Below, piece by piece: positions 22,253 to 64,000 of a stretch of DNA of 64,000 nucleotides (positions within the stretch are counted from its first letter, which is position 1; the number at the start of each line of letters is the position of its first letter). The position numbers were made by a program, and so were the translations under genes. The stretch is from positions 2,140 through 66,139 of the forward strand of contig CAZHCJ010000001.1 in NCBI GenBank assembly GCA_964530945.1, in the 5' to 3' direction. Source of the stretch: Candidatus Woesearchaeota archaeon (GTDB lineage Archaea; Nanobdellota; Nanobdellia; Pacearchaeales; GW2011-AR1). The notes under the pieces were generated by a model that was not told the origin of the DNA, did not search any database, and saw only the letters and a program-made list of their open reading frames with translations.

Positions 22253-22659
22253 TTTTTGTTCTTTTTCCCAGATTTAATTTTTTTACTTTTTGATTTAGAC
22301 TTCTTCTTTTTCACAGGTCCTGGCTTCTTTGGACCTGGCTTCCTATACGTTTTGGGAGTATACTCTTGAATTCTCTTATCTCCGAGATGTCTCTTGAACA
22401 CATATGAACTAATCAAAGACACATAATAAAATGCAAAAGCTATTCCAAAAAATGAAAAAAACACAGTCAATATTTTTCCTACATTAGTTGTTGGAGTGAT
22501 ATCTCCATAACCAATCGTTGTTGCACTAATAACTACAAAATAAACTGCATCTATCAAAGCCCATCCTTCAATTTGGGTGTAAGCAAAAGCCGAGCCAGCC
22601 AAAACCAAAATGAAAACTAATGCAGACAACACAAAGTGCCTACCATGATCGTTTACCAT
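22249..22659 (-). CDS. 2-TM potassium channel (KcsA-like pore) with a poly-Lys/Pro C-terminal tail
   Basis: Selectivity filter TTIGYGD between two hydrophobic helices. Tail KPGPKKPGPVKKKKSKSKSKK. Confidence 0.75.
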   Translation of the reverse strand: MVNDHGRHFVLSALVFILVLAGSAFAYTQIEGWALIDAVYFVVISATTIGYGDITPTTNVGKILTVFFSFFGIAFAFYYVSLISSYVFKRHLGDKRIQEYTPKTYRKPGPKKPGPVKKKKSKSKSKKIKSGKKNKK

Positions 22660-27135: not shown

Positions 27136-28470
27136 TTAAACTTCAAGCCTTTCATTCAGCTCATTAGAAATATTTTCCAACATTTTTTCTTTAACTTTTT
27201 CCTTGCTCTTTGTCCATTGCTTGTGTCCTAAAACCCATCCAAGCTTAACCAAAGCCGTCTCGCTTAACATGTTTTCTAAAAATATTACTCCAGTATTCAA
27301 AATCTCACGGCCATTACTATAAACCCACGGATCTAACCTTCCATACACTGTTTGAGCGGTAGCGCAAACAATCATGCCTTTGTCTTGAATTTTTTTAAGT
27401 TTTTTTAGCCACCCTTTGCGAGCTTTAACAGGAACATGTCCAAGGCCAGACATTTCCAAAACCAAACCTTTGTATTTTTTCTTTTGATAAAAATCAAGTA
27501 TATCTGGATTTTGTCCAGGATAAACCTTGACCAAGGCAACTTTTTCTTCGAAAGCCATATCTGTTTTTACCTTGCTTTTACCTTTTTTTCTAACATTGTA
27601 TTCTCTCAATGGAATAATTTTATCAGGAAATATTTTTGCGAAAGCCTTGTCGTTTATTGGCTTGAAAGCATCCCTACGCGAAGTGTGCATTTTTCGTGTT
27701 TTCGTTGCAGGCAAAGCATAACAATAATCATCATTAATTGTTCCGTGCCCCACTAACATCACTTCGGCAATCTCACTTATGGCAGCCAAAGCGCTACACT
27801 GCAAATTCAAATTAGCATCACTTGAAGCACGATCTATACTTCTTTGGCTGTAAGTCAAAACCACTGGCTTGTTCAGGTTCTTGCTTCCCCCCAACAAAAA
27901 GAAACTTAAAGCAGAGGCAGTGTAGTGTAAAAAATCAGTCCCATGAGTAATAATTACCCCTTTAATATTATTATCATTGAGAAGTTTCTTTGCAACCCTC
28001 GCTAACTTTTGCCAGTCTCTATAATCCATATCTTCTGAAGCCTTCAAAAACGGACGCTCAACTTTTACAACATTTACAATCTCAAACACCTCAGGATAAT
28101 ATCTAAACAAATCTTCCGGCTCTGTTAAAGGGTCTACACCTCCTGTTTTTGCATCTAAACGAGAAGCTATTGTCCCTCCCGTAATAATCATTGCGACATT
28201 AGGTTTGCTTTTATGCCGTTTTATTTCCAAATCAGGTCTCTCGCTTTTTCCTTTTTCAATCAATTCTATAAAACGAATTTTTTTCTTGTTCAAACCAATA
28301 TTGTATCCCGAATTGAGTTTTATCAAAACTATGTTTTTTTCATTTTTTGGACTTTGCAAAAGTCTTCCTCTGTAGCTTTTTTTCAAAAGCTTAACTTCAA
28401 CCAAATCTCCTGGCAAAGGTTTAACCTTTTTCTCAATTTTTTTCTTTTTCTTCTTTTTAACCATAAACAA
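27136..28470 (-). CDS. gatD: Glu-tRNA(Gln) amidotransferase subunit D (GatD)
   Basis: N-terminal GatD domain plus an asparaginase-like domain: IITGGTIAS, ITHGTD, GHGT. Poly-Lys N-terminus derived from an A-tract. Confidence 0.85.
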   Translation of the reverse strand: MFMVKKKKKKKIEKKVKPLPGDLVEVKLLKKSYRGRLLQSPKNEKNIVLIKLNSGYNIGLNKKKIRFIELIEKGKSERPDLEIKRHKSKPNVAMIITGGTIASRLDAKTGGVDPLTEPEDLFRYYPEVFEIVNVVKVERPFLKASEDMDYRDWQKLARVAKKLLNDNNIKGVIITHGTDFLHYTASALSFFLLGGSKNLNKPVVLTYSQRSIDRASSDANLNLQCSALAAISEIAEVMLVGHGTINDDYCYALPATKTRKMHTSRRDAFKPINDKAFAKIFPDKIIPLREYNVRKKGKSKVKTDMAFEEKVALVKVYPGQNPDILDFYQKKKYKGLVLEMSGLGHVPVKARKGWLKKLKKIQDKGMIVCATAQTVYGRLDPWVYSNGREILNTGVIFLENMLSETALVKLGWVLGHKQWTKSKEKVKEKMLENISNELNERLEV

Positions 28471-29664: not shown

Positions 29665-29767
29665 CGGGCCTACTAGGATTCGAACCTAGATCAACCGGGT
29701 TTTTCAAGACAAACTTAATCAGTTAACTCTCCGAAACCGGACATTCTATCCATTGAACTATAGGCCC
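29665..29767 (-). tRNA. tRNA-Arg (anticodon TCG) with a 31-nt intron at position 37/38
   Basis: Acceptor GGGCCTA/TAGGCCC. D arm GTTC..GAAT. Anticodon stem TCCGG with loop TTTCGG|intron|C. T arm CTAGG TTCGAAT CCTAG. There is a U27-U43 mismatch, so the exact intron boundaries are uncertain. Confidence 0.6.
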
Positions 29768-32767: not shown

Positions 32768-33853
32768 CTATTTCTTAGTAACAATCTTTTCTAAATTTTC
32801 CCTAAATTCTTCTAAATCCGAAACCTGTATCTGGCCTCCTACTGCTTCTTCATGCCCTCCTCCACGAGAACCTCCAATATCCTTTATGGAGCGGAGTAAA
32901 AACGCTTTAGCCTTTTTTCCACGTATAGAAAGATTCGCTTTCAGTCCACGAATATAAATAACACAAATTAATTTTTTTGGAAAAAGATAATAAAGTTCAC
33001 TTGCCAAGTCACTGCTAATACTTAGGTCTCCCCCATATTGAAAAAACAACAGACGTTCACTAGATTCTTCCCCGATATTTACGGCTTTTTTCAAAAGCTT
33101 TTGATACTTTGAATCAAGTTGTTCAAAACGTTTATGAATAGTTTTATTTTTGTTTGTTTCTTCCAAAACATCATGAGGACCTCGTGCCTTCATCAAAAAT
33201 TTCATCATTTTCACAACATTTGTCGTGCGATCTTTCAGTCCATAGCCCAACATTCTTGAAATTCTTCCTATTCCGGATTTGTAATAAATATCAAATGCTC
33301 CAGCATCTTTCTCCTTGAGAGATAACTCCGGATACTTTTTCTTAAATTCTTTATAAAATTCAGGCATATATTTATCGGCAATGCATCCAGCAACTCCTAT
33401 CCAAGAATCTTCTTTGCGTTTTGAGATTTGATAACATAATGCCGTAACTGGCTCAGTGCTGGGATTCTTGTTTGAAGCAGGATTATAATAACTGACAAAT
33501 TTTGGCACCTCCTCAAAATCTTCGTCTTCAGCAACTTCATGATGGTCAATCCAAACAACAGGTATATTAAACTTTTCCGCTTCGTTAAAGAACTCCCTTG
33601 ATACTAAAGGCTTATCTAAAATAAAAATATAATCTGCTTTCAATTCATGAACACGACGAAAATGGCTTTTATCCAGTTGAGGATAAGACTTTATTGGCAC
33701 TCCTTTACCATGTTCAATGTATCTTTGCAACAAAAGAAAACTACACAAACCATCTTGGTCATTATCAAAAAAGAATAAAGGACGTTGTGCACGCTCTAAA
33801 TGCTCTCTAATCTCCAATACTTGTTTTTTAGTTAACATATTAATTTTTTTCAA
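32768..33853 (-). CDS. DHH/DHHA1 phosphoesterase (RecJ/NrnA-like)
   Basis: DHH motifs FDNDQDGLCS and IDHHE. DHHA1 GGGH motif GGSRGGGHEEAVGG. Confidence 0.75.
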   Translation of the reverse strand: MKKINMLTKKQVLEIREHLERAQRPLFFFDNDQDGLCSFLLLQRYIEHGKGVPIKSYPQLDKSHFRRVHELKADYIFILDKPLVSREFFNEAEKFNIPVVWIDHHEVAEDEDFEEVPKFVSYYNPASNKNPSTEPVTALCYQISKRKEDSWIGVAGCIADKYMPEFYKEFKKKYPELSLKEKDAGAFDIYYKSGIGRISRMLGYGLKDRTTNVVKMMKFLMKARGPHDVLEETNKNKTIHKRFEQLDSKYQKLLKKAVNIGEESSERLLFFQYGGDLSISSDLASELYYLFPKKLICVIYIRGLKANLSIRGKKAKAFLLRSIKDIGGSRGGGHEEAVGGQIQVSDLEEFRENLEKIVTKK

Positions 33854-34566: not shown

Positions 34567-35655
34567 TTAATTTATACTCTTCCCAACAAGTATTTTCTCT
34601 TTTAAAGTTTTAAGTTCTTTAGTTATAGAAGCGATTAAATCTTCATTGTTAAATATCTTCTTGAAATCTTTTTCATCGGCCGAAAAAACATCTTCTAAAC
34701 TATCAAAATGGTTAAGGACTATTTTAATATCTTTGTCTAACAAGGAAGTATTGCCAAGAATCCTATACCCTTCAGGAGATATCTCTTTATCGTGAAGTTC
34801 TCCAAACAACATTCTTGAAATATTTGAAGTTTCAAGAAGAAAATCAAAACTCATATTCTCAAGCATCTCATCTGACTTCTCTATTTTTTCTTTAAGATAA
34901 TCTTTCAGAATCATGTTTCTTTCATGATTCAAATCTTTTGTCAATTCTTTGAGACGCATACTCACTATGTTCCCTTCTTTACCTAACTCCACAAGATAAC
35001 GTTTAACACTCTCTGAAATCCTTCTTATAGTTTCCAAACTCTGAAGTATGTTTGACACATCGCTTAAAGACACAAGATTGGTTATTTCTAATATATTCAA
35101 ATGACTCAACAAATCATCAAAAATATCCTTTTGTTTCTCTAATATCTGCAATGTCTCTGCTGCCCTTCTTAATATCTCAGAGGTTCTTTCCAAGAAATAA
35201 GATTCATCTCTGAAATACAATGTAATTTTATTCTTCCTCTCGGAAACGGCAATTGAAATAGTTCCGTGTTGCTTTGCAGTACGCTCTGCAGCCTTATGCC
35301 TAGTTCCGGTTTCTTTTGTTGCAGTTTGAATACTTGGTTTTAAGAGCGTATTAGCATAGAGAATCTTCTTCAAATCATAAGATACAATTATCGCTCCATC
35401 CATTTTAGCCAATTCAACAATTTTTTGTGAACTGAATTTTGAATTAATCCTAAATCCTCCTTCCACACTATTCATTAGGTCATTTACATCAAAAACAATT
35501 AACGCCCCCATTCTAGCCCTAAGAATATCATCAAGCGCAGTGCGAATGGCAGTTCCAGGAGAGAATATTTTCAAGATATCTACAATATCTTTTCCTTTGA
35601 AAGGATCTTCATCAACTTCTTTTTCATCATTCTTTTGCTTCTTCTTTTTTGCCAT
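34567..35655 (-). CDS. disA: DisA-like diadenylate cyclase (N-terminal DAC domain, helical linker, HhH-like C-terminus)
   Basis: DAC motifs DGAIIVSYD and TGTRHKAAERTA. C-terminal KIVLNHFDSLEDVFSADEKDFKKI resembles the DisA HhH region. Confidence 0.75.
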   Translation of the reverse strand: MAKKKKQKNDEKEVDEDPFKGKDIVDILKIFSPGTAIRTALDDILRARMGALIVFDVNDLMNSVEGGFRINSKFSSQKIVELAKMDGAIIVSYDLKKILYANTLLKPSIQTATKETGTRHKAAERTAKQHGTISIAVSERKNKITLYFRDESYFLERTSEILRRAAETLQILEKQKDIFDDLLSHLNILEITNLVSLSDVSNILQSLETIRRISESVKRYLVELGKEGNIVSMRLKELTKDLNHERNMILKDYLKEKIEKSDEMLENMSFDFLLETSNISRMLFGELHDKEISPEGYRILGNTSLLDKDIKIVLNHFDSLEDVFSADEKDFKKIFNNEDLIASITKELKTLKEKILVGKSIN

Positions 35656-37157: not shown

Positions 37158-37289
37158 TTACTTAATCAAAAGACTTAGTAGAGCTAGAACTCCTCCAATC
37201 AATGGAAGGTAGTAGTCCATTCCCCAAAATTGGCCTATTATTGCTAGAATACCACCGATTCCAACAAGCCACATTTTTCCTGATTTCAT
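37158..37289 (-). CDS. Possible 43-aa membrane micro-protein (not in the ORF track)
   Basis: Hand-translated: MKSGKMWLVGIGGILAIIGQFWGMDYYLPLIGGVLALLSLLIK*. Confidence 0.2.
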   Translation of the reverse strand: MKSGKMWLVGIGGILAIIGQFWGMDYYLPLIGGVLALLSLLIK

Positions 37290-37365
37290 GTTAACCTCTT
37301 ATCAAATTTAATTAAATATTGCAAGTAAGGGGTATATTTAAACTTAACTCTCGACGAAAAAATTC

Positions 37366-38647: not shown

Positions 38648-39631
38648 TTACTTCTTCCTTTTTTTAGAGTTTTTGGAAGTTTTCTTTTTTGAAGGTTTTT
38701 TTGGTTTTTTCTTTTTTGGTTTTGTTTTCTTCTTTAATTTTTTTGATTTTTTCTTAGTTTTTTTCTTGGTCTTACTTTTAGATTTCTTACTTTTGGTTTT
38801 TGTACCTTTCTTACTTGACTTCTTGGATTTCTTTGCTACCTTCTTTTCGGCTTTTTTCTTAGCGGCTTTTTTTCTTGCAATTGTCCTCCTTCTCTTCAAC
38901 TTACGCTCTCTCTTTCTTCTCTTGAGTGCCCTTTCTCTTTTTCTACTCAACCGTTCTTTCTCATTATCTATTTCTCTTTCTACTTCACTTAATTCTTGCT
39001 CATATTTCTTAAGATTCCTTTTTAAACCTCTTAAAAGTTTTGCATTATCTCTCAACTCAAAAATAGCCCCGCATTCTTGGCAAGCAAAATCATAAAGTAA
39101 CGCGTTTTCTTCTTTCAGTTCAATATTGCATCTGTTACAGATATAAAACTGGTTTTGTTCCCTACTCTTTATTTGATTCTCAATTTGGAAAATTCGGTGT
39201 TCAATCTTTTTCTTTAAAAAATCCAAGGCTTTCAATGCCTCTATTTTCCAAAAATAAGTATACCATCCTTTTTTCTTATCCTTTTTTCTTATACTGGAAA
39301 CCAATCCATAATCTGCAATTTTATAAAGAATGTTTCTTGTTTGGTTTATGGTTATATCTAATTTTTTTGCAATCAGAAATTCATTGGTATAACGTTTTAT
39401 ATCGAGCAACTCAACAATCTCTTCAGATTGTCTTCCTGCAACAATACCTATAACTTCTCTTAAAAGGTCTTGAAGTGTTTTCTTATTCTCCACTTCTTTT
39501 TTAGAAGAAACTTTTTTCTCTAACTTTTCTTTTTGCTTACTTTTTTTCTTGGAAGTTTTTTTGCTCTTCTTACTTTTGGATTTGGAAATCTTGCTCTTTT
39601 TATTCTTGCTTACTTTTTTTTTGGAGGGCAT
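38648..39631 (-). CDS. tfe: Transcription factor E (TFE/TFIIE-alpha homolog) with long poly-Lys N- and C-terminal tails
   Basis: Winged helix: NQTRNILYKIADYGLVSSIRKKDKKKGWYTYFWKI. Zinc ribbon: CNRCNIE...CQECGA. Flanked by K-rich segments of about 50 and about 100 aa. Confidence 0.75.
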   Translation of the reverse strand: MPSKKKVSKNKKSKISKSKSKKSKKTSKKKSKQKEKLEKKVSSKKEVENKKTLQDLLREVIGIVAGRQSEEIVELLDIKRYTNEFLIAKKLDITINQTRNILYKIADYGLVSSIRKKDKKKGWYTYFWKIEALKALDFLKKKIEHRIFQIENQIKSREQNQFYICNRCNIELKEENALLYDFACQECGAIFELRDNAKLLRGLKRNLKKYEQELSEVEREIDNEKERLSRKRERALKRRKRERKLKRRRTIARKKAAKKKAEKKVAKKSKKSSKKGTKTKSKKSKSKTKKKTKKKSKKLKKKTKPKKKKPKKPSKKKTSKNSKKRKK

Positions 39632-44261: not shown

Positions 44262-46769
44262 TTACTCAAGATAAATCCCTGGCTTGCCTGTTTTGACTTT
44301 CTTTGATTTGTTTTCCGGGTCATACTTATCTTTCTCATTTACTGCATAAATTTTTATTTCTAAACTTGTCTTTTTCTCAATATAATCTTTCTTTCCAAGA
44401 TAGACTTTCTTTTCCTGAGGCAGAACATAAATATGTGCCTTACTGACATTTGTTTCGACAAGTTCTAAGATTTTATTTACATCCTCAATAAGCATCTCAA
44501 CAAATTCTTCCTCTTTCTCCAAGCTCTCGTTGATTTTGCTTTCATCAACTTTAGGCCAACTTTCAACACTTAACATCTTTTTATTTCCAAGTTTCTGCCA
44601 AATCTCTTCGGTTATGTGCGGGCAAAAAACATGTAAAAGTTTTAAGAATTTCTCAAAAGACTTCTTGTCCGCACCCTGTTCTAAATGATTAAACAACTCA
44701 CGAATTTTTATTACAGCTAAATCATATCTCATCTCTTGAACATCTTTGCTCACAAGTTTAATTGTCTTGTTTAATTTGTGATCTGTAAGGGCATCAATTT
44801 TTGTGTCAAACTGATTTTTCTCCGCAAAGCCAATGACATTCCTCACAAATCTTAAACTTCCTTCAATTCCTTCATCGCTCCAGTGCCTGTCTTTATCTGG
44901 AGAACCTATGGAAACTAAAAATAGCCTGGCAGTGTCTATCCCATACTTGTCACTTATAACGTCCGGGTAAACTCCATTGCCCCTTGATTTGGACATCACA
45001 TATCCATCCTCTCCATGAAGCATTCCTTGGTTAAACAAATTCTTGAAAGGTTCATCAATTTCCAAGAAACCTAAATCTCTCAAAGCCTTAACAAAAAATC
45101 TAGCATAAATAAGATGCATTGTTGCATGCTCTGCCCCTCCTATATACTGGTCAACAGGCATCCAATACCCAACTTTTTTAGCTCCAAAAGGTTTTTTCGA
45201 ATTCTTATTATCGCAATACCTCAGGTAGTACCATGAACTGTCAAAAAACGTGTCCATAGTGTCTGTTTCTCTTCTGGCATTAGCGTTACATTTGGGACAC
45301 TTAGCCTCAAGCCATTTTTTGTTTGTCAACAAAGGATTCCCTTTTCCAAACCTAACTTCCTCAGGAAGCTTAACAGGCAAGTCTTTTTCAGGAACAGGAA
45401 CAACTCCACACTTTTCACAATAAACAATTGGAATGGGGGTCCCCCAATATCTCTGTCTTGAAACGAGCCAATCTCTTAGCTTGAATTGCACTTTACTTCT
45501 AGCTTTCTTTTTTCTTTCCAAATGTGCTGTAATCTTCTTTATTGCCTCATTACTTTTAACTCCATTGAATTCTCCAGAATTAACCAAGTATCCTTCTCCA
45601 GTATATGCTCTTGGAATCTCTCCTTTCCGTTCATAAATCTCGTAGTCTTTAGGCTCAACAACAACTTCCACGGGCAAGCCATACTTTTCAGCAAACTCAA
45701 AATCACGTTGGTCATGAGCGGGCACGCCCATCACCATTCCACTACCATAATCTGCGACAACAAAATTCCCTGCATAAATCGGAACTTTCTCTCCACTAAT
45801 GGGATTTGTTGCATAGCTTCCTGTAAAAACACCTTCTTTTTCAAGGCCTTCAAGTTCTTTTTCGCTAATGGATTTTATTTTTTTCAGAAAGGATTCAACT
45901 TTCTTTCTTTGTTCTTTTGTGACCAAATTCATCAGTTCAGGATGTTGGGCAGAAACAACCATAAACTTAACCCCATAAATAGTATCAGGCCTTGTGGTGA
46001 AAATCTTCCAAACCTTACCATTTATATCAAAATCTATTTCTGTCCCCTCACTGCGACCAATCCAATTCTTTTGCATGATTTTAATCCTGCGAGGCCAATT
46101 CAAAGTGTCCACCTTATCCAAAAGCTCTTCCGCATATTCAGTAGTTTTTAGGAACCACTGCTTCAATTGTTTTACCTCCACTTCTGTATCTTCGTGGCGC
46201 CAACACTTACCATTATGAACCTGCTCATTTGCAAGAACCGTGTCGCATTTAGGACACCAATTAACATTTGAAAGTTTTCTGTAAGCCAATCCTTTTTCCA
46301 AGAATTTCAAAAAGAAAAACTGATTCCATTTATAATACTCTACATCAGAAGTTTTCAAAGTTCGCCTCCAATCATAACTCAATCCAAGAGTCTTTAATTG
46401 AGAAGTATAATTCCGTGTTGAGTGTTTAATAGTCTCTTTAGGATGTTTTTTTTCTTTTATTGCGGCATTTTCGGCAGGCAAACCAAAACTATCATAACCC
46501 ATTGCATAAAGAACATTAAATCCATTCATTCTCTTAAATCTGGAAAAAACATCTCCTATTGTGTAATTAAAGGCGTGGCCCATGTGAAGCTTTGAACCAG
46601 AAGGGTATGGGAACATCTCAATCACAGTAAATTTTTTCTTTCCAGATTTCAAACTAACCTCAAACACTTTCTCCTTTTCCCACTTCTTCTGCCACTTCTT
46701 TTCAATTTTTGCAAAATCAAATTTAGTTTTCTTTTTCTCTGTCTTTTTCTTAAGTTTTTTCTTAGCCAT
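44262..46769 (-). CDS. leuS: Leucyl-tRNA synthetase (bacterial-like)
   Basis: HIGH motif HMGHAFNYTIGD. KMSKS motif VMSKSRGN. YAMGYDSFGLPAENAAIKE. Confidence 0.9.
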   Translation of the reverse strand: MAKKKLKKKTEKKKTKFDFAKIEKKWQKKWEKEKVFEVSLKSGKKKFTVIEMFPYPSGSKLHMGHAFNYTIGDVFSRFKRMNGFNVLYAMGYDSFGLPAENAAIKEKKHPKETIKHSTRNYTSQLKTLGLSYDWRRTLKTSDVEYYKWNQFFFLKFLEKGLAYRKLSNVNWCPKCDTVLANEQVHNGKCWRHEDTEVEVKQLKQWFLKTTEYAEELLDKVDTLNWPRRIKIMQKNWIGRSEGTEIDFDINGKVWKIFTTRPDTIYGVKFMVVSAQHPELMNLVTKEQRKKVESFLKKIKSISEKELEGLEKEGVFTGSYATNPISGEKVPIYAGNFVVADYGSGMVMGVPAHDQRDFEFAEKYGLPVEVVVEPKDYEIYERKGEIPRAYTGEGYLVNSGEFNGVKSNEAIKKITAHLERKKKARSKVQFKLRDWLVSRQRYWGTPIPIVYCEKCGVVPVPEKDLPVKLPEEVRFGKGNPLLTNKKWLEAKCPKCNANARRETDTMDTFFDSSWYYLRYCDNKNSKKPFGAKKVGYWMPVDQYIGGAEHATMHLIYARFFVKALRDLGFLEIDEPFKNLFNQGMLHGEDGYVMSKSRGNGVYPDVISDKYGIDTARLFLVSIGSPDKDRHWSDEGIEGSLRFVRNVIGFAEKNQFDTKIDALTDHKLNKTIKLVSKDVQEMRYDLAVIKIRELFNHLEQGADKKSFEKFLKLLHVFCPHITEEIWQKLGNKKMLSVESWPKVDESKINESLEKEEEFVEMLIEDVNKILELVETNVSKAHIYVLPQEKKVYLGKKDYIEKKTSLEIKIYAVNEKDKYDPENKSKKVKTGKPGIYLE

Positions 46770-46800: not shown

Positions 46801-47340
46801 TTGTCCTATGCTCTTAGATGCATGGGAACAATAGAAGCGCACATCGTAGGAAACATCATCTCCAGTAACTCTGATGAAGCATTCACATTATATAAAAAAA
46901 GCAATTTTGGAGAACCTTCTGGAGAAAAAATACGCTATTCATTCTCCGAGGCACTCTTTCTCCTAGAAAAAAATAAACTCTGTATCATTCAACGTAAAAC
47001 AAAACTCAAATCTAAAGAGTTAATAAAAAAGCTTCATCGTAAAGACAAAAGGATTCAAACAAAATACGCAGTTTACCGTGATTTGAGAGAACGTGGATAT
47101 ATCGTCAAAACAGCGTTAAAATTCGGTGCTGATTTTAGAGTTTATGATAAAGGGAAAGGCCCTGGAAAAACTCACGCTAAATGGATTGTTTTTGCAGATA
47201 ACGAATCAAATAGGATAACTTGGAGCGACTTTTCGGCAAAAAATCGTGTAGCGCACAGCACAAGAAAAAAGCTGTTACTAGCAGTAGTGGATGAAGAAAA
47301 CGCAGTAAGTTACTACGAAGTTTCTTGGATAAAGCCTTAA
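46801..47340 (+). CDS. endA: tRNA-splicing endonuclease (EndA)
   Basis: Catalytic domain YRDLRERGYIVKTALKFGADFRVYDKGKGPGKTHAKWIV. Confidence 0.85.
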   Translation: MSYALRCMGTIEAHIVGNIISSNSDEAFTLYKKSNFGEPSGEKIRYSFSEALFLLEKNKLCIIQRKTKLKSKELIKKLHRKDKRIQTKYAVYRDLRERGYIVKTALKFGADFRVYDKGKGPGKTHAKWIVFADNESNRITWSDFSAKNRVAHSTRKKLLLAVVDEENAVSYYEVSWIKP

Positions 47341-48345: not shown

Positions 48346-48537
48346 ATGGGAAAGATAAAAACAAAACTAATTAAGAATACTGCCGAGAAGCTCATAGAAG
48401 AAGGTATAGAATTTAATGAAGATTTTGAAAAAAACAAAAAGATACTTGGAGATACTATGCCAAGCAAAAAAATTCGTAATCAAGTGGCAGGATACTTGTC
48501 AAGAAAAATCAGGCAAGAAAAGAACAAGAGCTACTAA
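48346..48537 (+). CDS. rps17e: Ribosomal protein S17e
   Basis: MGKIKTKLIKNTAEKLIEE...SKKIRNQVAGYLSRKIRQ, which matches the archaeal S17e pattern. Confidence 0.8.
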   Translation: MGKIKTKLIKNTAEKLIEEGIEFNEDFEKNKKILGDTMPSKKIRNQVAGYLSRKIRQEKNKSY

Positions 48538-48810: not shown

Positions 48811-48912
48811 GGCTGTGTAGCTCAGTGTTTAGAGCGCCGCTCTCATGAATTTTTCAAATAAAGGAAAAATTGGGTCAGGCGGAGGTCGGGGGTTAAATTC
48901 CCCTCACAGCCA
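48811..48912 (+). tRNA. tRNA-Met/Ile2 (anticodon CAT) with a 29-nt intron at position 37/38
   Basis: Acceptor GGCTGTG/CACAGCC. D arm GCTC..GAGC. Anticodon stem CCGCT with loop CTCATG|intron 48848-48876|A, then GGCGG. T arm GGGGG TTAAATT CCCCT. CTTTTAAAT lies about 25 nt upstream. Confidence 0.7.
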
Positions 48913-48919
48913 TTAAGAA

Positions 48920-49285
48920 TTACCCTAGATAAATTCCTCTTTTTCCATCTCTCTCTTTCCTAGGCAAAATGTGAAAATGAACGTGTCTTATTACCTGTCC
49001 TGCAACCTTCCCGTTATTTAGAGCCATATTGAATCCTTCTGCACCATATCTCTTAATCAAAATCTCAGCTACTTCATTGACAAACATCAAATAATCTTCA
49101 GAATATTCCTCTTCTAAATCTTCTAAAGTGTCAAAATGTTTCTTAGGAATTACAAGTGTATGCCCTTCTCCTACAGGGTTTGCATCCGCAAAAGCAATAA
49201 ATTTTTCGTTTTCGTGAATTTTTTCTGAAGGAACCTCTCCACGAATAATCTTACAAAAAATACAATCTTTTTCCATAGTGTTCAA
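48920..49285 (-). CDS. HIT-family (histidine triad) nucleotide hydrolase
   Basis: HTLVIPKKHF. HVHFHILP (HxHxHxx). Confidence 0.85.
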   Translation of the reverse strand: MNTMEKDCIFCKIIRGEVPSEKIHENEKFIAFADANPVGEGHTLVIPKKHFDTLEDLEEEYSEDYLMFVNEVAEILIKRYGAEGFNMALNNGKVAGQVIRHVHFHILPRKERDGKRGIYLG

Positions 49286-49340
49286 TACACTCCAAACTTT
49301 AAAAACATTAACAAATAAAATAAAATAAAATTTACTCTTC

Positions 49341-49664
49341 TTATCTTTTCTTTTTTCTCTTAGGTGCAGCTTTCTTCTTGGAGGCCTTCTTCTGAGCAGA
49401 CTTTTTCTTAGTCGTTCTTTTCTTGCTCTTCTTTGGCTTGGTTTTTTTCAAAACCTTCTTTGCGCCCTTCCTTACCTTCTTCTTAGCCTTTCTCTTAACT
49501 TTCTTTGCTTCTTTCTTAGCAACTCTCTTAGCAGACCTTACTGTCTTCCTTACATTTTTCCTAACAGTTTTTTTCGTTGCTTTCTTCTTAGGTGCCTTCT
49601 TTTTAGCGACCTTCTTTCGAACCGGCTTTTTCTTAGCAGCACGCTTTGTTTTTTTACGTGGCAT
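49341..49664 (-). CDS. Extremely lysine-rich basic protein of 107 aa (histone H1 / Hc1-like)
   Basis: Over 50% K/R/A: MPRKKTKRAAKKKPVRKKVAKKKAPKKKATKK... No globular domain. Confidence 0.55.
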   Translation of the reverse strand: MPRKKTKRAAKKKPVRKKVAKKKAPKKKATKKTVRKNVRKTVRSAKRVAKKEAKKVKRKAKKKVRKGAKKVLKKTKPKKSKKRTTKKKSAQKKASKKKAAPKRKKKR

Positions 49665-49743
49665 TTTTAACCCTCTTTTTAATTCCTTTCAGAAAGGATA
49701 AATTGTTTATAAATTTTTGGTAAAATCTTTTAATTAAGAAAAA

Positions 49744-51402
49744 TTATTTTACTTCCTTTCCTGCTTTCAGAAAACTGATTTCTCCGTCGATTAACTTAGC
49801 TAATATGTCCTTCAAATCAGAAATCTTTACGCGAATTTGTTTTGTGGTGTCCCTGTCGCGAATCGTGATATCTTTATTTTTTAATGAATCACCGTCGATA
49901 GTTATGCAGTAGGGGGTTCCAATCTCATCATTACGTGCGTAACGCCTACCTATGCTTCCTGAAATATCTTGGACAACATTAAATTCTTTTTTTAACAAAT
50001 CAAAAACCTCTCGGGAAAGTTTTTCGAACTCCTGTTTTTTGACTATTGGAAAAATTGCTGCTTTTATTGGAGAAAGTTTAGGATTTAACTTTAAAACCAC
50101 ATTATCTCTTTCTTCATCATACGTGTATGCCTTAGTCAAAGCAGCCAGAAATACTCTCTCCATTCCAAAAGTGGGCTCAATAACTCTTGGAATTACCTTC
50201 TCAGAGGTTTTATCATCGAAAATTTCCATCTTTTTTCCACTTTCTTTTTCGTGTTGTTTCAAATCAAATTGTCCCCTATTCGCGTTTCCCGCAACCTCCT
50301 TGCTACCAAAAGGATATTCGTAATCGATATCGAACGTAGCTGAACTATAATGGCTCAATTCGTCTTTTGTGTGTTCTCTAATTTTTATCTCATCCAAACC
50401 CATTTTTTTAAACCATATGATTTGCTCTGCCAACCAATACGCATGCCACTCACCTAATTTTTTCTTCTTAATCAAATTCTCCATTGAAACCTCTTTAATA
50501 ACATCTTTCCCTTTATTTTGCGTTTCTTCATCTAAAAATTTAAATTTTAAATCTAAATGTTGCTTATTCAATAAAGAACAATTCTCTTCATTAGGATTAA
50601 TAAAAAACTCAAGCTCCCCTATATGAAACTCTCTCGAACGGAATAAGAAATCTCTTGGAGCTATCTCGTTTCTAAAACATCTTCCTATTTGGGCTATCCC
50701 AAAAGGCAACTGCATACGAGAGGTTTGCTGAATCAATTTAAAATCCATAAACATTCCTTGAGCTGTTTCCCCTCTTAAATAGGCATCTTCCGCATCTGTG
50801 GCTCCTACTTTAGTTGAAAACATAAGATTGAACTTTCCTTGAGACTCATACTCTCCTCCACATTTATCACATTTAACTTTCCCAAATTCGTTCTCATCAA
50901 GCTTAGAATTCGCCCCACATTTCTTACATTTAACAAAGAGATCATTAAAATTTTCTATATGCCCAGAAGCCTTCCATGTATAGGGATGACTTATGACGCT
51001 TGCTTCCATTCCAACAATATTCTCTCTTTGCTTAACAAAAAAATCCCACCACTCTTTCTTTATGTTATTAAACATCTCTATCCCGAGTGGGCCAAAATCC
51101 CAGAACCCTGCAATGCCTCCATAAATATCACTACTTCTAAAAACAAACCCTTTTCTCTTACAAAAACTTGCAAGTTCTTCCACAGAGATTTTTTTTCTTT
51201 CTAAACTGATTTTTCTCTCTTTATCTTCAACTTTTTTATTTTTCATTTTCTTAATTATCTCCTTCGCTTTTCTCTCAGCATCATCCTTATCTTTCCCAAG
51301 ATAAGCAATTGTCTTGGTCTTAACCTTTCCATTCACACGCTTATTCTCATTAAGATAATAATATTCGTTGCCTTTGATATTTTTCTTAACAACAAAAGCC
51401 AT
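49744..51402 (-). CDS. glyS: Glycyl-tRNA synthetase (archaeal/eukaryotic alpha2 type)
   Basis: FVFRSSDIYGGIAGFWDFGPLG. Class II motifs. Cys cluster CKKCG...CDKCG. Confidence 0.9.
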   Translation of the reverse strand: MAFVVKKNIKGNEYYYLNENKRVNGKVKTKTIAYLGKDKDDAERKAKEIIKKMKNKKVEDKERKISLERKKISVEELASFCKRKGFVFRSSDIYGGIAGFWDFGPLGIEMFNNIKKEWWDFFVKQRENIVGMEASVISHPYTWKASGHIENFNDLFVKCKKCGANSKLDENEFGKVKCDKCGGEYESQGKFNLMFSTKVGATDAEDAYLRGETAQGMFMDFKLIQQTSRMQLPFGIAQIGRCFRNEIAPRDFLFRSREFHIGELEFFINPNEENCSLLNKQHLDLKFKFLDEETQNKGKDVIKEVSMENLIKKKKLGEWHAYWLAEQIIWFKKMGLDEIKIREHTKDELSHYSSATFDIDYEYPFGSKEVAGNANRGQFDLKQHEKESGKKMEIFDDKTSEKVIPRVIEPTFGMERVFLAALTKAYTYDEERDNVVLKLNPKLSPIKAAIFPIVKKQEFEKLSREVFDLLKKEFNVVQDISGSIGRRYARNDEIGTPYCITIDGDSLKNKDITIRDRDTTKQIRVKISDLKDILAKLIDGEISFLKAGKEVK

Positions 51403-56537: not shown

Positions 56538-56659
56538 CGGACCCGGCAGGATTTGAACCTGCGACTTCTTGCTTACTTCGGAAAGTCACGCCTTTCTGAA
56601 GGTCGGAAAAACATTTTCCGTAGAAGGCAAGCGCTCTATCCAGGCTGAGCTACGGGTCC
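56538..56659 (-). tRNA. tRNA-Arg (anticodon TCT) with a 47-nt intron at position 37/38
   Basis: Acceptor GGACCCG/CGGGTCC. D arm GCTC..GAGC. Anticodon stem CTTGC/GCAAG with loop CTTCTA|intron|A. T arm GCAGG TTCAAAT CCTGC. TTTTAAATA lies about 25 nt upstream. Confidence 0.6.
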
Positions 56660-59252: not shown

Positions 59253-60218
59253 ATGGCTTCAATAAAAAAATGTCCTGAATGCGGCGGCGTCAACCTAACA
59301 TACGATCCTCATCTCGGAGAAGTTGTATGTAACGATTGTGGCTTAGTTGTTGAAGAAAAAATGGTTGATTCTGGAATAGATCTTCACGGCAAATTTGACA
59401 AAAGCGAAAAAAAAGGGCGTGGCGGAGCCCCAACAAGCATTCAAAAATTCGACAAAGGTTTAACGACAAACGTTGGAGAAATCTCTGATATTTATAGATT
59501 AGATTCAAAACAAACACGTAAGTTTCTTCGTTTGAAAAAATGGCAGGAACGTGTTTCCACAAGCATAGAACGTAATCTAAGGCTTGCAATGGCAGAGCTG
59601 CGCGTCATTTCTTCTTACTTGAGCCTGCCAAACGTTGTAAGGGATGAAGCCGCAAGAATATACAATTATGTGTTGCAACGCGGTCTTGTAAGAGGTAGGA
59701 GCATGGAATCTGTAATCGCAGCATGTTTATATGCTGCATGTCGTTCATACAGCGTTCCGAGAACTCTAGATGAAATGGCTACTGCTTCCGATGTTGAACG
59801 TAAAGAAATTGGCAGAACATACAGATTCATAATTAGAAAACTAGGAATAAAAGTTAAGCAAAGCTCTCCAAAAGATTACATATCGCGTTTCTCATCCGTT
59901 TTAAAACTCAGTCCCAAATCCCAAAACATTGCTCTTGAAGTTTTAGATGATGCGGAAAAAGCAGAACTTACATCTGGAAGAGGTCCTGCAGGAATAGCTG
60001 CCGCGGCACTCTACGTTGCCGCGTTAATGAATGATGAAAAGAAAACCCAAAGAGAAGTTGCAGACATCGCAGGGATTACGGAGGTAACAATACGTAATAG
60101 ATATAAAGAACTAATAGAAAAGCTTGGATTGGAAGAAAAGATAAGTCAAAAAGAAAACGAAGAGAAAAAAAACAAAGATAAAAATTCAAAGAAAGAAAAA
60201 ATTAAGAAGAAGAAATAA
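59253..60218 (+). CDS. tfb: Transcription initiation factor IIB (TFB)
   Basis: Zn ribbon CPECGG...CNDCG. B-reader/linker, then two cyclin-fold repeats. TATA cgTTTATAAAtg lies about 45 nt upstream. Confidence 0.95.
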   Translation: MASIKKCPECGGVNLTYDPHLGEVVCNDCGLVVEEKMVDSGIDLHGKFDKSEKKGRGGAPTSIQKFDKGLTTNVGEISDIYRLDSKQTRKFLRLKKWQERVSTSIERNLRLAMAELRVISSYLSLPNVVRDEAARIYNYVLQRGLVRGRSMESVIAACLYAACRSYSVPRTLDEMATASDVERKEIGRTYRFIIRKLGIKVKQSSPKDYISRFSSVLKLSPKSQNIALEVLDDAEKAELTSGRGPAGIAAAALYVAALMNDEKKTQREVADIAGITEVTIRNRYKELIEKLGLEEKISQKENEEKKNKDKNSKKEKIKKKK

Positions 60219-60402: not shown

Positions 60403-63400
60403 CTAATTCTCCAATGGTTGCCCTTCAGAATCACAGCTAACAGGGCAATTGCCATATGCAGGCGCACTTATCTCATATCCTGAAGGAAAATTTGGATTAT
60501 CTTCATACAAAAAATCTTTATCCAATCCTCGAGGTTCTGAATCATCTTTCTGAGGATTTGTGCACCCGTGCCCAATAAGATTTCCTGTTTCAATATTGTA
60601 TTTGTCAATCAAATAATGGACTAGCTTCGAAAGTGATTCTTTCTGACTTTCTGTATATTCATCCTCTCCCTCTCCAAGATTTACTATCTCTATACCTATA
60701 GATAAAGAATTTAAACAATTTGCGTGCTGAGCACTAAGTTCTTCAGGAACTACTCTTACAATTCTTCCGTCTTTTCCAACAATGTAATGAATACTATTCC
60801 TGTTTTTAATTAATGCCAAAAGGGTAGCCTCCACACTTCCCGATGCAGAATGGTGCAAAACAATATACTCTGGAGTTGCATCATTGCTTCTCTCTAAATG
60901 ATTAAATGCGGAAAGAGACATCTCTTCGGATAAAGAATCCAAAAAAGGATGAGAATCTGAATAAAAACTACCTTCTCCCTCTGAATCTTCTTCAGTTTCT
61001 GGTTCTTCAGTTTCTGGTTCATCTTCATCGTCATCATCTTGAGAAACTAAATTTTGATAAGCACTCAAAGCAATCTCTCCTAAAGCATTCCCCCTCAACC
61101 AGTAAAGATGTCCTTTTTGATTGTTGTAAAATACTTTATTGATGTTGTCAGTAATGTTGTTTACCAAATCCATTCCTCTCAGGCCTTTTAAGCCATCTAG
61201 AAAGCCTTCAAAATTCGTTATGTAATCACCACTCTCTTTAAGAGAGTTTAATGCTTTTTCTTCATGCACGCTTAAAATTTCGTCTTCAACTTCACTGGAC
61301 CTAACAATGTTTTCCACGCTTTGAGCATCAAGCCAACATTTTAAGTTTTCTTGTCCGCAATTTCCTACCTCTTTCCATCTTGCATCTTCCGTTCCAAAGC
61401 TAGGATCAGAACCTTTTCCTGGACTTTCTGTAGAACAAACACGAATTATTCCCTTATTGTATATCTCAGGATTTATTGCATCTTCAACAGCAGACTGAGG
61501 ATTCAAACTCATTAAAACATCTAATTTTGGAGTTCCTGAAACACAATCTTCTGCAGAATCTATATTCTCTTCTAGTGCTTGATCTTTTATATACTGGTCA
61601 CGAATAATGTCTGTTGCAAGACTTGTTGAAACCGTTTGGAACCCACACTCTTCTTGTCCATTGACAATAATACATAATTCATTATACCCTGAAGGAGCTG
61701 TAAAGTCTTTTGTTTGAGTGATTTTCTCTCCAACATCTAAACTTCCTGCCGCAACAACCCTCCTATAGTTAGTGTCTCCAAAGTAACTCGGATTGCCTTT
61801 CAAATAAACCTCATAAATTGCAGGAGAGTCTCTTCCTGAGAATATGAAATAAAATACTTTATAGTGCGAAATAGGTGGATTTGTTGTGCTAGTATATTCT
61901 ATCTCCTGAAAGGTTCCATGGAATTGAGCAGGTGAATCTGGTTGAGTTAACGCGTCTAAAAGTGAACCCATATCTGGATACGCGCCAGAAATCCAACTCT
62001 TGCAAACCTCGGTTCCTGCATTTTGAATACTCCTTGCCTTGAAAGCCTCAAAAGAATTTGCAGCATAATAATCTGTTATGTAATCCACAGATTCACTGGC
62101 ACGGTCAAAAGAATCTTCAACAGTAAGATACTCTCCACCCCCGCTTCCTCCCTGTCCAAAGACACGCTCAACCCCTTCTTTTACAAAAAGTTCTCCTAAA
62201 GGCTTCGCTTCTCTCCATAATAAATCACACATATAAACACTATTTATCTCATCACAAATCCCTACTGTTTGACCTGTATCTAAACTTGTTTGAAGACATT
62301 GCGTATAAGAGTCTATTACCTCTGTAAGTCCATCGACACCGGCATGAATTCCTGTTAAACAAATAGGGACTTTCACTTCTGGAAAGTTCGGTAAACAAAG
62401 CAAAGTACTCCCTATTATTCCCGACTGCACAACATCATCTACAGGGTATTCTCCGCCAAAATCGCATCTAGAATTTGGGCAAACGAATGGGTCACAAATG
62501 TTAAACAATAAATTACAATCCGAAGGAGACATGAAGTCTTGACATTGTATGTCTGGAGTGCCAACATAAGTCTTTCCAATAGTAAAAATTTCTGTTCCCC
62601 CACATGTCGTTCTGATACTTATTTTATCTCCTACATCTCTTCTTTGACCTTCCTCTGATGCTTGCCTTATTGCACTAACAGAGCAATCAACTAAGTTTGA
62701 AGCTTCATTCTCACTCAAACCAGGAAATTGATTGTATGGTTGTCCGGTTCCAAGATTAATCATCTGACAAATATCATCCGATGTACCTGAGCTAAATTCC
62801 TCTTCTCCATTCTCACCGACATTGCAAACAAAGAAACTAGAAATTCTTCCAGAATCTTCATATGAGCCCATACTTCTCCCAATAGGCAATGTAGGTTTTA
62901 TTGCGGCATACCAGCCATCATCAGTATCAAAAGGAACAATTGCAGGTAAATTCTCATACTTTCCAGAATCATAAAAACGTATTTCTGGATTTTTATATTT
63001 GTTCTTATACGATTCTCCATCGATTTTTTCTAAATCAATATTCAGGGGATTTGTTTGTTCATTACTATACTCTTCTAAGTTTCCTATACTTGTTATCAAA
63101 TATGTTTGAATTATATTGTAATCATCATCTAAAACAAACAAAATTTTTTCTTGATTACTTCCATGCTTGTATAAGAAAGGATATACAAAACTAGAATCAT
63201 CTATTTTTGAATGTGAGTTAGAGTTGAAATTGTTTTTAACATTGTTAAATCTCTTAACATCACTCACCACATAGTCTTTCTGGTTTGGAACACTCACAAT
63301 TGCTTCCTCAAAACCATACTTCTCTGCAAAATCATCTTTCTCTTTTTCCGACTTGGAATTAATCCAAACTTCAATCAATTCAGATTTTATCTCTTGCATA

Positions 63401-64000
63401 GCTATCGCTTTAAGATTTTCATCTCCAGAAACCAATAATCTAGAATTAACATTCAAATCCCTAGCTTCACTCAAAAGGGTATTTGAACTACCTATCAAAG
63501 CGATAATATCTCTAACAGGAACGGGATTTCCTTCAATTTCAATTGTTTCCCCCATCTCCGATTCAATTCTCGAAACAAGATTATCTTTAAAACTAGAATC
63601 AACATAAGTTTCGTAAACTTTCTTTGTGTCTATAACTTCTCCAAATAATCCGCCTTCAGAGAATCTTCCTTCAATAGAATCTATTTCTTGATTTTCTTTT
63701 CCTATCTCTCCTGCAACAGCACTAACATCTGCCTCAATAGCATCATTATTTTCTAAAAGGCATTGGTCTACACTCCCATAAGCCCCATTTTTGTATTCCT
63801 GTTCACACTTCTTGAACCAGCCTTCTTCTCCACGCATCACATTTTGTCTTGCGATTCCTGCGCCCCCAATATTCGAAAAGAAATTTTTAACTATCAACCC
63901 TCCTGCAGTTACCAAACAAGAAGTTTTTCCAACTTTAACCACTTTTCCCAATACGTCTTCAATCTTTTCAAGTTTAACAAGTGTTTCGTTCCAAGATTCA
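60403..64000 (-). CDS. Giant Cys-rich secreted/surface protein of at least 1,180 aa with a C-terminal Amidase_2 domain. The 5' end runs off the window: the frame is open to nt 64000, and the track's M at 63951 is a TTG codon.
   Basis: C-terminus TPEYIVLHHSASGSVEATLLALIKNRNSIHYIVGKDGRIVRVV...AQHANCLNSLSIGIEIVN...LIGHGCT. Central region has more than 30 Cys. Acidic linker DDDDEDEPETEEPETEEDSEGEG. Confidence 0.65.
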   Translation of the reverse strand, partial: ESWNETLVKLEKIEDVLGKVVKVGKTSCLVTAGGLIVKNFFSNIGGAGIARQNVMRGEEGWFKKCEQEYKNGAYGSVDQCLLENNDAIEADVSAVAGEIGKENQEIDSIEGRFSEGGLFGEVIDTKKVYETYVDSSFKDNLVSRIESEMGETIEIEGNPVPVRDIIALIGSSNTLLSEARDLNVNSRLLVSGDENLKAIAMQEIKSELIEVWINSKSEKEKDDFAEKYGFEEAIVSVPNQKDYVVSDVKRFNNVKNNFNSNSHSKIDDSSFVYPFLYKHGSNQEKILFVLDDDYNIIQTYLITSIGNLEEYSNEQTNPLNIDLEKIDGESYKNKYKNPEIRFYDSGKYENLPAIVPFDTDDGWYAAIKPTLPIGRSMGSYEDSGRISSFFVCNVGENGEEEFSSGTSDDICQMINLGTGQPYNQFPGLSENEASNLVDCSVSAIRQASEEGQRRDVGDKISIRTTCGGTEIFTIGKTYVGTPDIQCQDFMSPSDCNLLFNICDPFVCPNSRCDFGGEYPVDDVVQSGIIGSTLLCLPNFPEVKVPICLTGIHAGVDGLTEVIDSYTQCLQTSLDTGQTVGICDEINSVYMCDLLWREAKPLGELFVKEGVERVFGQGGSGGGEYLTVEDSFDRASESVDYITDYYAANSFEAFKARSIQNAGTEVCKSWISGAYPDMGSLLDALTQPDSPAQFHGTFQEIEYTSTTNPPISHYKVFYFIFSGRDSPAIYEVYLKGNPSYFGDTNYRRVVAAGSLDVGEKITQTKDFTAPSGYNELCIIVNGQEECGFQTVSTSLATDIIRDQYIKDQALEENIDSAEDCVSGTPKLDVLMSLNPQSAVEDAINPEIYNKGIIRVCSTESPGKGSDPSFGTEDARWKEVGNCGQENLKCWLDAQSVENIVRSSEVEDEILSVHEEKALNSLKESGDYITNFEGFLDGLKGLRGMDLVNNITDNINKVFYNNQKGHLYWLRGNALGEIALSAYQNLVSQDDDDEDEPETEEPETEEDSEGEGSFYSDSHPFLDSLSEEMSLSAFNHLERSNDATPEYIVLHHSASGSVEATLLALIKNRNSIHYIVGKDGRIVRVVPEELSAQHANCLNSLSIGIEIVNLGEGEDEYTESQKESLSKLVHYLIDKYNIETGNLIGHGCTNPQKDDSEPRGLDKDFLYEDNPNFPSGYEISAPAYGNCPVSCDSEGQPLEN

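Follow-up and report, generated by a model that had tools for sequence, protein, structure and literature searches.

We describe a lysine-rich open reading frame (ORF) at positions 49341-49664, on the minus strand, of a 64,000-nucleotide stretch of DNA from a Candidatus Woesearchaeota archaeon (contig CAZHCJ010000001.1; hereafter, the whole stretch is called the window). Judged by its sequence signals and conserved surroundings, this ORF is a genuine stand-alone protein-coding gene with its own transcription unit. By position, architecture, sequence grammar, and codon bias, its product can be assigned to a family of lysine-rich proteins of 25-107 aa in Pacearchaeota/Woesearchaeota-type DPANN archaea. 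As to function, we tentatively prefer, with a little less than even confidence, a non-specific, nucleoid-associated protein that would neutralise charge and compact DNA.

Translation and composition agree with an earlier note on this DNA, which had described the ORF, from its letters, as a 107-aa K/R/A/P repeat and had named no strand. The conceptual product begins MPRKKTKRAAKKKPVRKKVAKKKAPKKK and consists of 46.7% K, 11.2% R, 13.1% A, 8.4% V, 6.5% T, and 4.7% P. Together, K and R make up 58% of the protein, the highest fraction among window ORFs of at least 60 aa (0.58, the runner-up having 0.37); there is a single acidic residue (Glu) and a single Leu, and F, W, Y, C, H, I, and D do not occur at all. 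The computed mass is 12.4 kDa, the pI ~12, and the net charge +61. Runs of two or three K/R residues are separated by spacers of one or two residues, ranked A>V>T>P>S. Residues 1-30 take the form of (A/V/P)2-KKK pentads punctuated by proline, the C-terminus reads ...KRKKKR, and the DNA of the ORF has degenerate periodicities of 15 nt and 12 nt.

The single-sequence AlphaFold2 (AF2) model, with a predicted template modelling score (pTM) of 0.35, contains a helix of 44 residues at 31-74 (predicted local distance difference test, pLDDT, 94-97) and a short helix at 85-97, the N-terminal 30 residues being non-helical. No tertiary or globular fold, histone fold, winged helix, or alpha1 helix is present in the model, and the protein, as predicted, would have no globular fold. 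With one Leu and no Ile or Phe, it has no hydrophobic core for a histone dimer interface, and a composition free of F, W, Y, I, and C leaves no signal peptide or hydrophobic segment.

The open frame, the purine-rich strand, the codon bias, the ORF's own expression signals, and the conserved locus argue for a gene and not for an artefact of A-rich DNA. Shuffling the sequence by mono- or dinucleotides yields a stop-free frame of 105 codons in ~0.1% of cases (P~0.001), and the remaining two sense frames of the region hold 4 and 11 stops. The sense strand is 75% purine, and all 15 of the 15 identified window genes are likewise purine-rich (57-69%). Among the lysine codons of the ORF, 33 of 50 (66%) are AAG, versus 25% in the 27 long genes of the window (binomial p=1.75e-9). 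The placement of AAG and AAA breaks up runs of A no better than a random 33/17 mixture (p=0.37), so the signal is the excess of AAG itself and not its positioning. Runs of AAA codons make ribosomes slide and thereby lower the yield of protein (Koutmou et al. 2015, PMC4363877), and an excess of AAG is, therefore, what selection on the translation of poly-lysine should give.

The ORF is surrounded by recognisable signals, which are listed with their neighbours in Table 1. A promoter role for the TATA box is predicted from its match with the consensus, and the box is preceded by a stretch resembling the B recognition element (BRE). The AATTAAA element, which is conserved across loci, is the probable transcription-start or initiator region, and a start there would give a leader of ~20 nt. 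Oligo-T tracts serve in archaeal transcription termination; from this known role, the tract between the lysine-rich gene and the downstream gene for a HIT-family hydrolase is a probable intrinsic terminator. The T-tract behind the upstream gene, that of glycyl-tRNA synthetase (GlyRS), probably ends the GlyRS transcript, so the lysine-rich gene would be a transcription unit of its own.

The leader is unusual for this genome. About 20 of the 47 window genes inspected have a TTTAWA box 27-29 nt before the ATG and no Shine-Dalgarno (SD) sequence (examples are marked in Table 1), and leaderless mRNAs appear, from these signals, to be the default of the organism. Leadered genes with an SD are confined in the window to the lysine-rich ORF, FtsZ, a K+ channel, a 43-aa peptide, and perhaps one more. 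Two copies of the composite TATA-N-AATTAAA-N-GAGG are present in the window, where 0.02 would be expected. Its second occurrence belongs to the 43-aa peptide, which is hydrophobic and has no Pfam match. That the lysine-rich product is translated efficiently is suggested by its conserved leader, by a strong SD in a largely leaderless genome, and by the AAG bias.

Homology searches are blind to the window protein, as explained below, and orthology was therefore argued from synteny. Using GlyRS as the anchor, we located relatives in 125 loci from GTDB species representatives and JGI metagenomes. GlyRS identity is ~54-76% in most of these loci, with three distant matches at 31-36%, and the close matches are all labelled Pacearchaeota, Woesearchaeota, or Nanoarchaeota, which places the source of the window among the DPANN archaea. 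The genome and metagenome collections contain no GlyRS relative above 85% identity (the best is ~76%), as would be wanted for frame conservation or the ratio of nonsynonymous to synonymous substitutions (dN/dS). A K-rich ORF was scored if it had at least 42% K+R and an SD, and lay on the same strand no more than 500 nt downstream of GlyRS. Such an ORF, of 25-89 aa, is present in 24 of the 86 distinct loci with sufficient sequence 3' of GlyRS, and HIT follows in 14 of these 24. In a few further loci a membrane-protein gene has been inserted, and the K-rich ORF lies beyond it at a distance of ~1.2 kb; in locus L056 two tandem K-rich paralogues follow GlyRS (7587-7787 and 7889-8128, both on the plus strand).

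When the 70 nt upstream of the ORF were stacked across loci, the same architecture was found nearly everywhere. Of the 30 other family members in the stack, 29 carry a TTTAWAWA box at -47 to -52, L044 being the exception. All stacked loci except L044 have an A-rich or CCGAAG BRE-like stretch, a TATA element at ~-50, TTCTTAAT at ~-35, and AATTAAA at ~-20, and the SD of the orthologues, GAGGTGA at about -10 to -13, belongs to this architecture, which is absent only in L044. T-rich tracts occur 3' of the stop codon in every stacked orthologous ORF. The codon bias is found throughout: each of the 31 related ORFs examined (31 of 31) uses more AAG than the long genes around it (46% vs 22%; Fisher 4e-41, Wilcoxon 1e-6). 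The conserved locus, the signals, and the family-wide AAG bias speak against an unexpressed or unconserved low-complexity artefact, the outcome that the earlier note had named as fatal to its own reading.

Three forms occur in the slot. Type A, the majority, begins with MAKAKTPKQL-x-IKI-x-SLKKQ-x-x-LE, followed by a basic tail; its helix pattern is M-A-K-x-K-T-P-K-Q-[LI]-x-x-K-I-x-S-L-K-K, with T6, K8, and Q9 invariant in alignment A1. A profile search returned at least 122 type-A clusters of 36-90 aa, all of them called "hypothetical protein" and without a Pfam domain, and those that are named stem from metagenome-assembled genomes of Pacearchaeota/Nanoarchaeota. AlphaFold, given an alignment of 35 type-A sequences, predicts a confident helix at 6-32 (pLDDT 91-98) and a low-confidence basic tail. 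Type B (L002, L005, and L063) has a different N-terminus, TTAKQKTAARKNLVKARKKW, also given as TTAKQKTAARKNLVKARKKWKGMT, in the same slot and with the same promoter architecture. Type C consists of basic repeats throughout, with no N-terminal module, and comprises the window protein together with L001, L016, L019, L022, L026, L028, L031, L043, L044, L065, and L066. All three forms end in a K/R run, mostly ...KKK(K)R(R) and in the window protein ...RKKKR, and the ranking of the spacers is common to them.

The window gene shares with the type-A genes the slot 3' of GlyRS and 5' of HIT, a leader with TATA at ~-50, AATTAAA, and SD, the oligo-T tract, a tail of (A/V/T/P/S)1-2(K/R)2-3 units with a K/R end, and AAG-enriched lysine codons. 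It differs in its length (107 aa, the longest member seen, vs 36-90 aa) and in its N-terminus, MPRKKTKRAAKKKP, which lacks the conserved type-A helix. The same helix is missing from five to seven other syntenic members, among them L001, L016, L044, L065, and L066. The family would evolve through the gain and loss of such short units.

The gene is not tied to one set of neighbours. In L126 and L129, the type-A gene comes after a site-2 protease gene, near aIF5A and L1/L10/P1; in another lineage, it lies directly 5' of HIT, with leucyl-tRNA synthetase (LeuRS) and a tRNA endonuclease near and no GlyRS. A 117-aa neighbour of the type-A genes in L126 and L129 was considered as a HIT protein and ruled out. 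A Rosetta-stone test was negative: 102 GlyRS C-termini, with overhangs of no more than 16 aa, and 54 HIT proteins were all free of K-rich fusions. By this evidence, the K-rich gene behaves as a unit that stands alone in changing neighbourhoods. The earlier description of a "stand-alone" poly-lysine gene is upheld by the conservation of the locus, by the signals for promoter, leader, and terminator, and by the AAG bias.

Standard searches return nothing for the window protein. It has no Pfam match at E<=0.1, no NCBIfam match, and no record in an exact-sequence look-up; word-indexed phmmer gave nothing at E<=1e-3 or E<=10, and exhaustive phmmer gave zero matches among 1.84 billion representatives. 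Against the sequences of the PDB, designed helical repeats alone appeared, at E>=0.23. This blindness is the consequence of low complexity and of the bias correction in HMMER.

The earlier note had likened the protein to linker-histone tails and to chlamydial Hc1. The winged-helix GH1 domain of linker histone H1/H5 (PF00538) is not present, either by Pfam or in the AF2 model, and there is no profile match to Hc1 (PF07432) or Hc2 (PF07382). One relative, L044, reaches only E=0.067 and 13.7 bits against the HC2 profile, below the 40-bit cut-off. What the protein does have is the H1-type basic tail, as a feature of composition only (47% K, 13% A, 5% P, +61, 107 aa). The likeness, therefore, holds for composition and sequence grammar but not for homology (Pfam, NCBIfam, the 1.84 billion representatives, the PDB, and the models), and on these sequence comparisons the window protein is not a homologue of H1, Hc1, or Hc2.

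What might such a protein do? With a charge of +61 and no hydrophobic core, it can hardly do anything but bind polyanions. Binding would be electrostatic and without sequence specificity, one molecule could neutralise ~60 phosphates, or ~30 bp of duplex, and the basic stretches would probably turn helical upon binding. Genomic DNA would be the most likely target, and the protein would be abundant, working alongside the histones and Alba reported for the lineage. The predicted function is thus a probable coating of nucleic acids in the manner of a linker-histone tail; the window protein would be analogous, and not homologous, to the H1 C-terminal tail, chlamydial Hc2/Hc1, and the protamines. 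Basic proteins that condense DNA, such as H1 tails, Hc2, and protamines, typically show free turnover of repeats and a wide range of lengths, whereas ribosomal proteins with a fixed site do not. The gain and loss of repeats and the 4-fold range of lengths in this family, therefore, favour a DNA-compacting protein of the nucleoid.

The four criteria for candidate nucleoid-associated proteins (NAPs) of Hocher et al. 2022 (PMC7613761) are small size (<290 aa), a single-gene operon, a known or predicted DNA-binding domain, and high cellular abundance. The window protein fits two of the four, having 107 aa and being encoded in a single-gene unit, with operon status read from the sequence signals. 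Pfam and NCBIfam contain no DNA-binding domain that matches it, and binding is expected from charge alone. As to abundance, the strong SD in a leaderless genome and the AAG bias are indirect hints.

Several points weigh against a nucleoid role. DNA binding, abundance, and localisation in the nucleoid are all properties that we infer. Histones and Alba are reported in the lineage, leaving no obvious vacancy for another NAP. The neighbourhoods, rich in translation genes, would fit a role with RNA or the ribosome at least as well, and poly-K modules are found on the tRNA-handling LeuRS and GatD of the same genome. The K-rich gene adjoins GlyRS in only 28% of loci, and the window protein is without the conserved N-terminal helix of its family. 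Its shuffle-controlled similarity to family members is best at z=3.9 (L001) and z=3.5 (L009), with p~0.003 each, which is non-significant after ~30 tests; similarity beyond composition is only suggestive.

A doubtful but serious alternative is a polycation associated with RNA or the ribosome, which would bind rRNA, tRNA, or mRNA as a ribosome accessory, RNA chaperone, or counter-ion. GlyRS, HIT, S17e, a tRNA endonuclease, and LeuRS lie near the window gene in a neighbourhood heavy in translation genes, aIF5A and L1/L10/P1 lie near the type-A genes of L126 and L129, and the poly-K extensions of LeuRS and GatD belong on the same side of the balance. In both size and charge, the shortest members (25-33 aa) are similar to very small basic proteins of the ribosome, and the type-A profile hits ribosomal protein L29 below threshold (E=0.6 and 3.1). 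These hits are non-significant, and the ribosomal protein families in Pfam and NCBIfam give no match. Moreover, a fixed rRNA site is an awkward home for a protein whose length is not conserved (25-107 aa) and varies 4-fold, with free turnover of repeats, within one order, and the gene stands alone, outside the ribosomal-protein operons.

It is improbable, in our estimation, that the gene is translated but functionally loose, that is, a low-complexity gene under weak or lineage-specific selection, or one encoding a generic polyamine-like counter-ion with no defined target. In favour of this reading, the primary sequence turns over very fast, the N-terminal helix has been lost in several lineages, lengths run from 25 to 107 aa, the gene is beside GlyRS in just 24 of the 86 loci, and standard methods find no homologues of the window protein. 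AT-rich genomes with lysine-rich proteomes also readily yield K-rich low-complexity segments. Against this, the leader and strong SD are kept down to ~54% GlyRS identity in a mostly leaderless genome, the AAG bias is universal, the basic C-terminal end and the grammar of the spacers are conserved, and a tandem duplicate has been retained in L056. Together, these features argue for sustained selection on the product.

Still less probable is a role with another polyanion or outside the cell, whether on polyphosphate granules, on acidic membrane lipids, or as a cationic peptide directed at a host. For Pseudomonas AlgP, a protein of H1-like K/A/P repeats, a role in the spacing of polyphosphate granules has been reported (PMC9239181). 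AlgP and the bacterial H1-like K/P/A repeat proteins resemble the window protein in their low-complexity lysine-rich repeats and in polyanion binding, and differ in that AlgP acts, as reported, on those granules and has no sequence match with the window protein. Attachment to a host is the way of life of DPANN archaea, and one gene of the window codes for a 1182-aa protein with a murein amidase domain. The window protein, however, has neither a signal peptide nor a hydrophobic segment, there is no link to secretion genes, and polyphosphate kinase and granule genes are not found in the neighbourhood.

We would give very little credence to a trans-acting, tRNA-binding cofactor of GlyRS, or a partner of HIT, in the way of the lysine-rich helices that are appended to aminoacyl-tRNA synthetases in eukaryotes. 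In 24 loci the gene comes directly 3' of GlyRS, in the same orientation and often with HIT next, and LeuRS and GatD of this genome have K-rich N-termini of their own. But the gene has a separate promoter and there is a probable terminator past GlyRS; elsewhere the type-A gene follows a site-2 protease gene or lies by HIT without GlyRS, and GlyRS lacks the K-rich gene in 62 of the 86 loci. The changing neighbourhoods and the absence of fusions among 102 GlyRS and 54 HIT proteins argue against a dedicated cofactor.

That there is no gene here at all, only a chance A-rich reading, an antisense F/L-rich ORF, or a lysine-sensing leader peptide of HIT, is scarcely credible: low-complexity purine-rich DNA does stay open in mirror frames, the antisense frame is likewise stop-free, and standard searches give no homologues, but the open frame, the AAG excess, the promoter and leader, and the conserved locus all argue for coding. 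The antisense ORF would have a sense strand with 25% purine, as against 57-69% in identified genes, and is without conserved promoter or SD. A leader peptide of this kind would be far too long, it is followed by a probable terminator and by HIT's own TATA box, and HIT is absent downstream in 10 of the 24 loci. As for an RNA gene, only tRNAs pass the Rfam thresholds in the window, and none lies inside the ORF.

To return to the preferred reading, that of a DNA-compacting protein, its closest parallels are found among basic proteins of other lineages. The H1/H5 C-terminal domain and the domain-less H1 of trypanosomatids have ~100 residues and ~40-50% lysine, the rest being A, P, S/T, and V, with almost no acidic or aromatic residues and with short basic runs separated by spacers of one or two small residues. 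The window protein is alike in all of this, and for both one would expect disorder in the free state and helices once DNA is bound. It differs in being archaeal and in lacking the winged-helix domain, a Linker_histone match, and detectable homology.

Hc2 and Hc1 are stand-alone prokaryotic proteins rich in K, A, and R, built of degenerate penta- or tetrapeptide repeats whose number determines variation in length between lineages, and the window protein shares these traits; Hc1 further resembles the type-A relatives in having an N-terminal helical part and a basic tail. The differences are the missing Pfam match, the other domain of life, and the want of a developmental-cycle context. The nearest precedent is WP_019177984.1, a small lysine-rich candidate NAP of the Methanomassiliicoccales (Hocher et al. 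2022, PMC7613761). Like the window protein, it is small, basic, lysine-rich, archaeal, and encoded in a single-gene unit, and it was proposed as a NAP on similarly indirect criteria; the window protein differs in having no predicted tertiary fold. In the literature searched, neither this family nor any other stand-alone H1-tail-like protein of archaea was described.

We also consider, as an unlikely possibility, that the Pacearchaeota, for which packaging of DNA by archaeal histones is reported, add an abundant stand-alone "linker-histone tail" that would bind and neutralise DNA between or alongside histone assemblies. The N-terminal helices of the type-A proteins could then pair and bridge segments of DNA. 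If true, this would be an independent archaeal invention of the principle of the H1 tail, in a group, the DPANN archaea, whose organisation of chromatin and nucleoid has hardly been studied.

Eukaryotes and several bacteria are known to have H1-like proteins rich in lysine, and prokaryotic lysine-rich low-complexity proteins that bind polyanions are nothing new; nor is the convergent appearance of K-rich proteins surprising in itself in an AT-rich genome. This gene and its family are, by the evidence above, real and unannotated. Should the protein be an abundant DNA binder, the archaeal repertoire of NAPs would gain a new class, and there would be another case of convergence on a polylysine tail for neutralising the charge of DNA, here in cells that have histones. 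Even with RNA as the target, the family is a conserved one that gene callers and homology tools can easily overlook. It also offers a clean natural case in which selection has favoured AAG over AAA where an AT-rich genome encodes poly-lysine.

The earlier note had gone further, proposing a charge-based organisation of chromatin or nucleoid from the poly-Lys tails on TFE, the K+ channel, and GatD, and from the lack of a histone fold. All three proteins do carry K-rich stretches, but the run on GatD is N-terminal, and the wider proposal fares poorly, since K-rich extensions are also found on a membrane channel, GatD, and LeuRS. AAG accounts for 36-40% of lysine codons in each of the poly-K appendages of GatD, LeuRS, and the K+ channel, a mild enrichment over the 25% of the long window genes. 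The proteome of this AT-rich organism is 10.8% lysine, and the K-rich extensions look like a proteome-wide habit and not a feature of chromatin.

On histones the earlier observation stands. The window protein has no Pfam match to the histone-fold families PF00808/PF00125, and a search of the six-frame translation of the window with query sequences for histone, Alba, Cren7, Sul7, HU, and MC1 found no homologue (all E>0.1). One 64-kb window without a histone is, however, uninformative, because the Pacearchaeota and Woesearchaeota are listed with both histones and Alba (Henneman et al. 2018, PMC6136690).

Table 1. Features of the window discussed in the text
Feature	Position	Strand	Description
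Lysine-rich polycation coding sequence	49341..49664	-	ATG 49664-49662, TAA 49343-49341; 107 codons
BRE-like A-rich stretch	49714-49720	-	CCAAAAA; precedes TATA box
TATA box	49706..49713	-	TTTATAAA; 49 nt 5' of ATG
AATTAAA element	49678..49684	-	~20 nt 5' of ATG
SD-like sequence	49670..49675	-	GAGGGT; 5 nt 5' of ATG
Oligo-T tract, probable terminator	49311..49330	-	TTTTATTTTATTTTATTTGT; 11 nt past stop codon
T-tract	49736..49743	-	TTTTTCTT; immediately past GlyRS stop
GlyRS	49744..51402	-	Upstream neighbour; Pfam HGTP_anticodon, tRNA-synt_2b; leaderless
HIT-family hydrolase	48920..49276	-	Downstream neighbour; Pfam HIT, 2.4e-26
TATA box of HIT	49298-49305	-	TTTTTAAA; own promoter, at leaderless distance
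Antisense F/L-rich ORF (rejected)	49423-49701	+	
LeuRS	44262-46769	-	Leaderless; K-rich N-terminus, starts MAKKKLKKKTEKKKTK
S17e	48346-48537	+	Leaderless
TFB	59253-60218	+	Leaderless
FtsZ	13486-14565	-	Leader and SD
K+ channel	22249-22659	-	136 aa; leader and SD; K-rich C-terminus, ends PKKPGPVKKKKSKSKSKKIKSGKKNKK
43-aa peptide	37158-37289	-	MKSGKMWLVGIGGILAIIGQFWGMDYYLPLIGGVLALLSLLIK; promoter and leader 37295-37342
GatD	27136-28470	-	N-terminal poly-K run, starts MVKKKKKKKIEKK
TFE	38648-39631	-	TFIIE_alpha domain residues 56-156; K/S-rich low-complexity extensions at both ends, ~50 aa N-terminal and at least 60 aa C-terminal
tRNA-splicing endonuclease	46801-47340	+	
tRNA gene	48811-48912	+	
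tRNA gene	56538-56659	-	
tRNA gene	29665-29767	-	
Conserved ORF, 313 aa	47380-48321	+	No Pfam match
Conserved ORF, 354 aa	43160-44224	-	No Pfam match
ATP-dependent DNA ligase and MCM	88-2223; 3037-6411	+	
Diadenylate cyclase and phosphoesterase	34567-35655; 32768-33853	-	DAC and DisA-linker; DHH/DHHA1
Two class-II aminoacyl-tRNA synthetases	18600-19907; 20298-21587	-	OB and tRNA-synt_2
1182-aa amidase-domain protein	60403-63951	-	

Other observations on the window may be of use to those annotating related genomes. GlyRS has an N-terminal extension of ~70 aa (…KGNEYYYLNENKRVNGKVKTKTIAYLGK…) that is missing in some orthologues, in which matches start at residues 44-84. The 313-aa conserved protein has a K/E-rich central linker, and its homologue adjoins S17e in L017. 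The three tRNA genes listed, being 102-122 nt long, probably contain introns, and the window also has a gene for a tRNA-splicing endonuclease. Two adjacent paralogous class-II synthetases of the Asp/Asn/Lys type lie near the GatD and GatE/B genes. Inteins with LAGLIDADG homing-endonuclease domains are present in the ATP-dependent DNA ligase and MCM. A DisA-type diadenylate cyclase is encoded near a DHH/DHHA1 phosphoesterase, and the pair may serve the synthesis and degradation of c-di-AMP in a DPANN archaeon. Finally, an N-acetylmuramoyl-L-alanine amidase domain lies towards the C-terminal end of the 1182-aa protein, a predicted archaeal murein hydrolase whose substrate might be the cell wall of bacteria.

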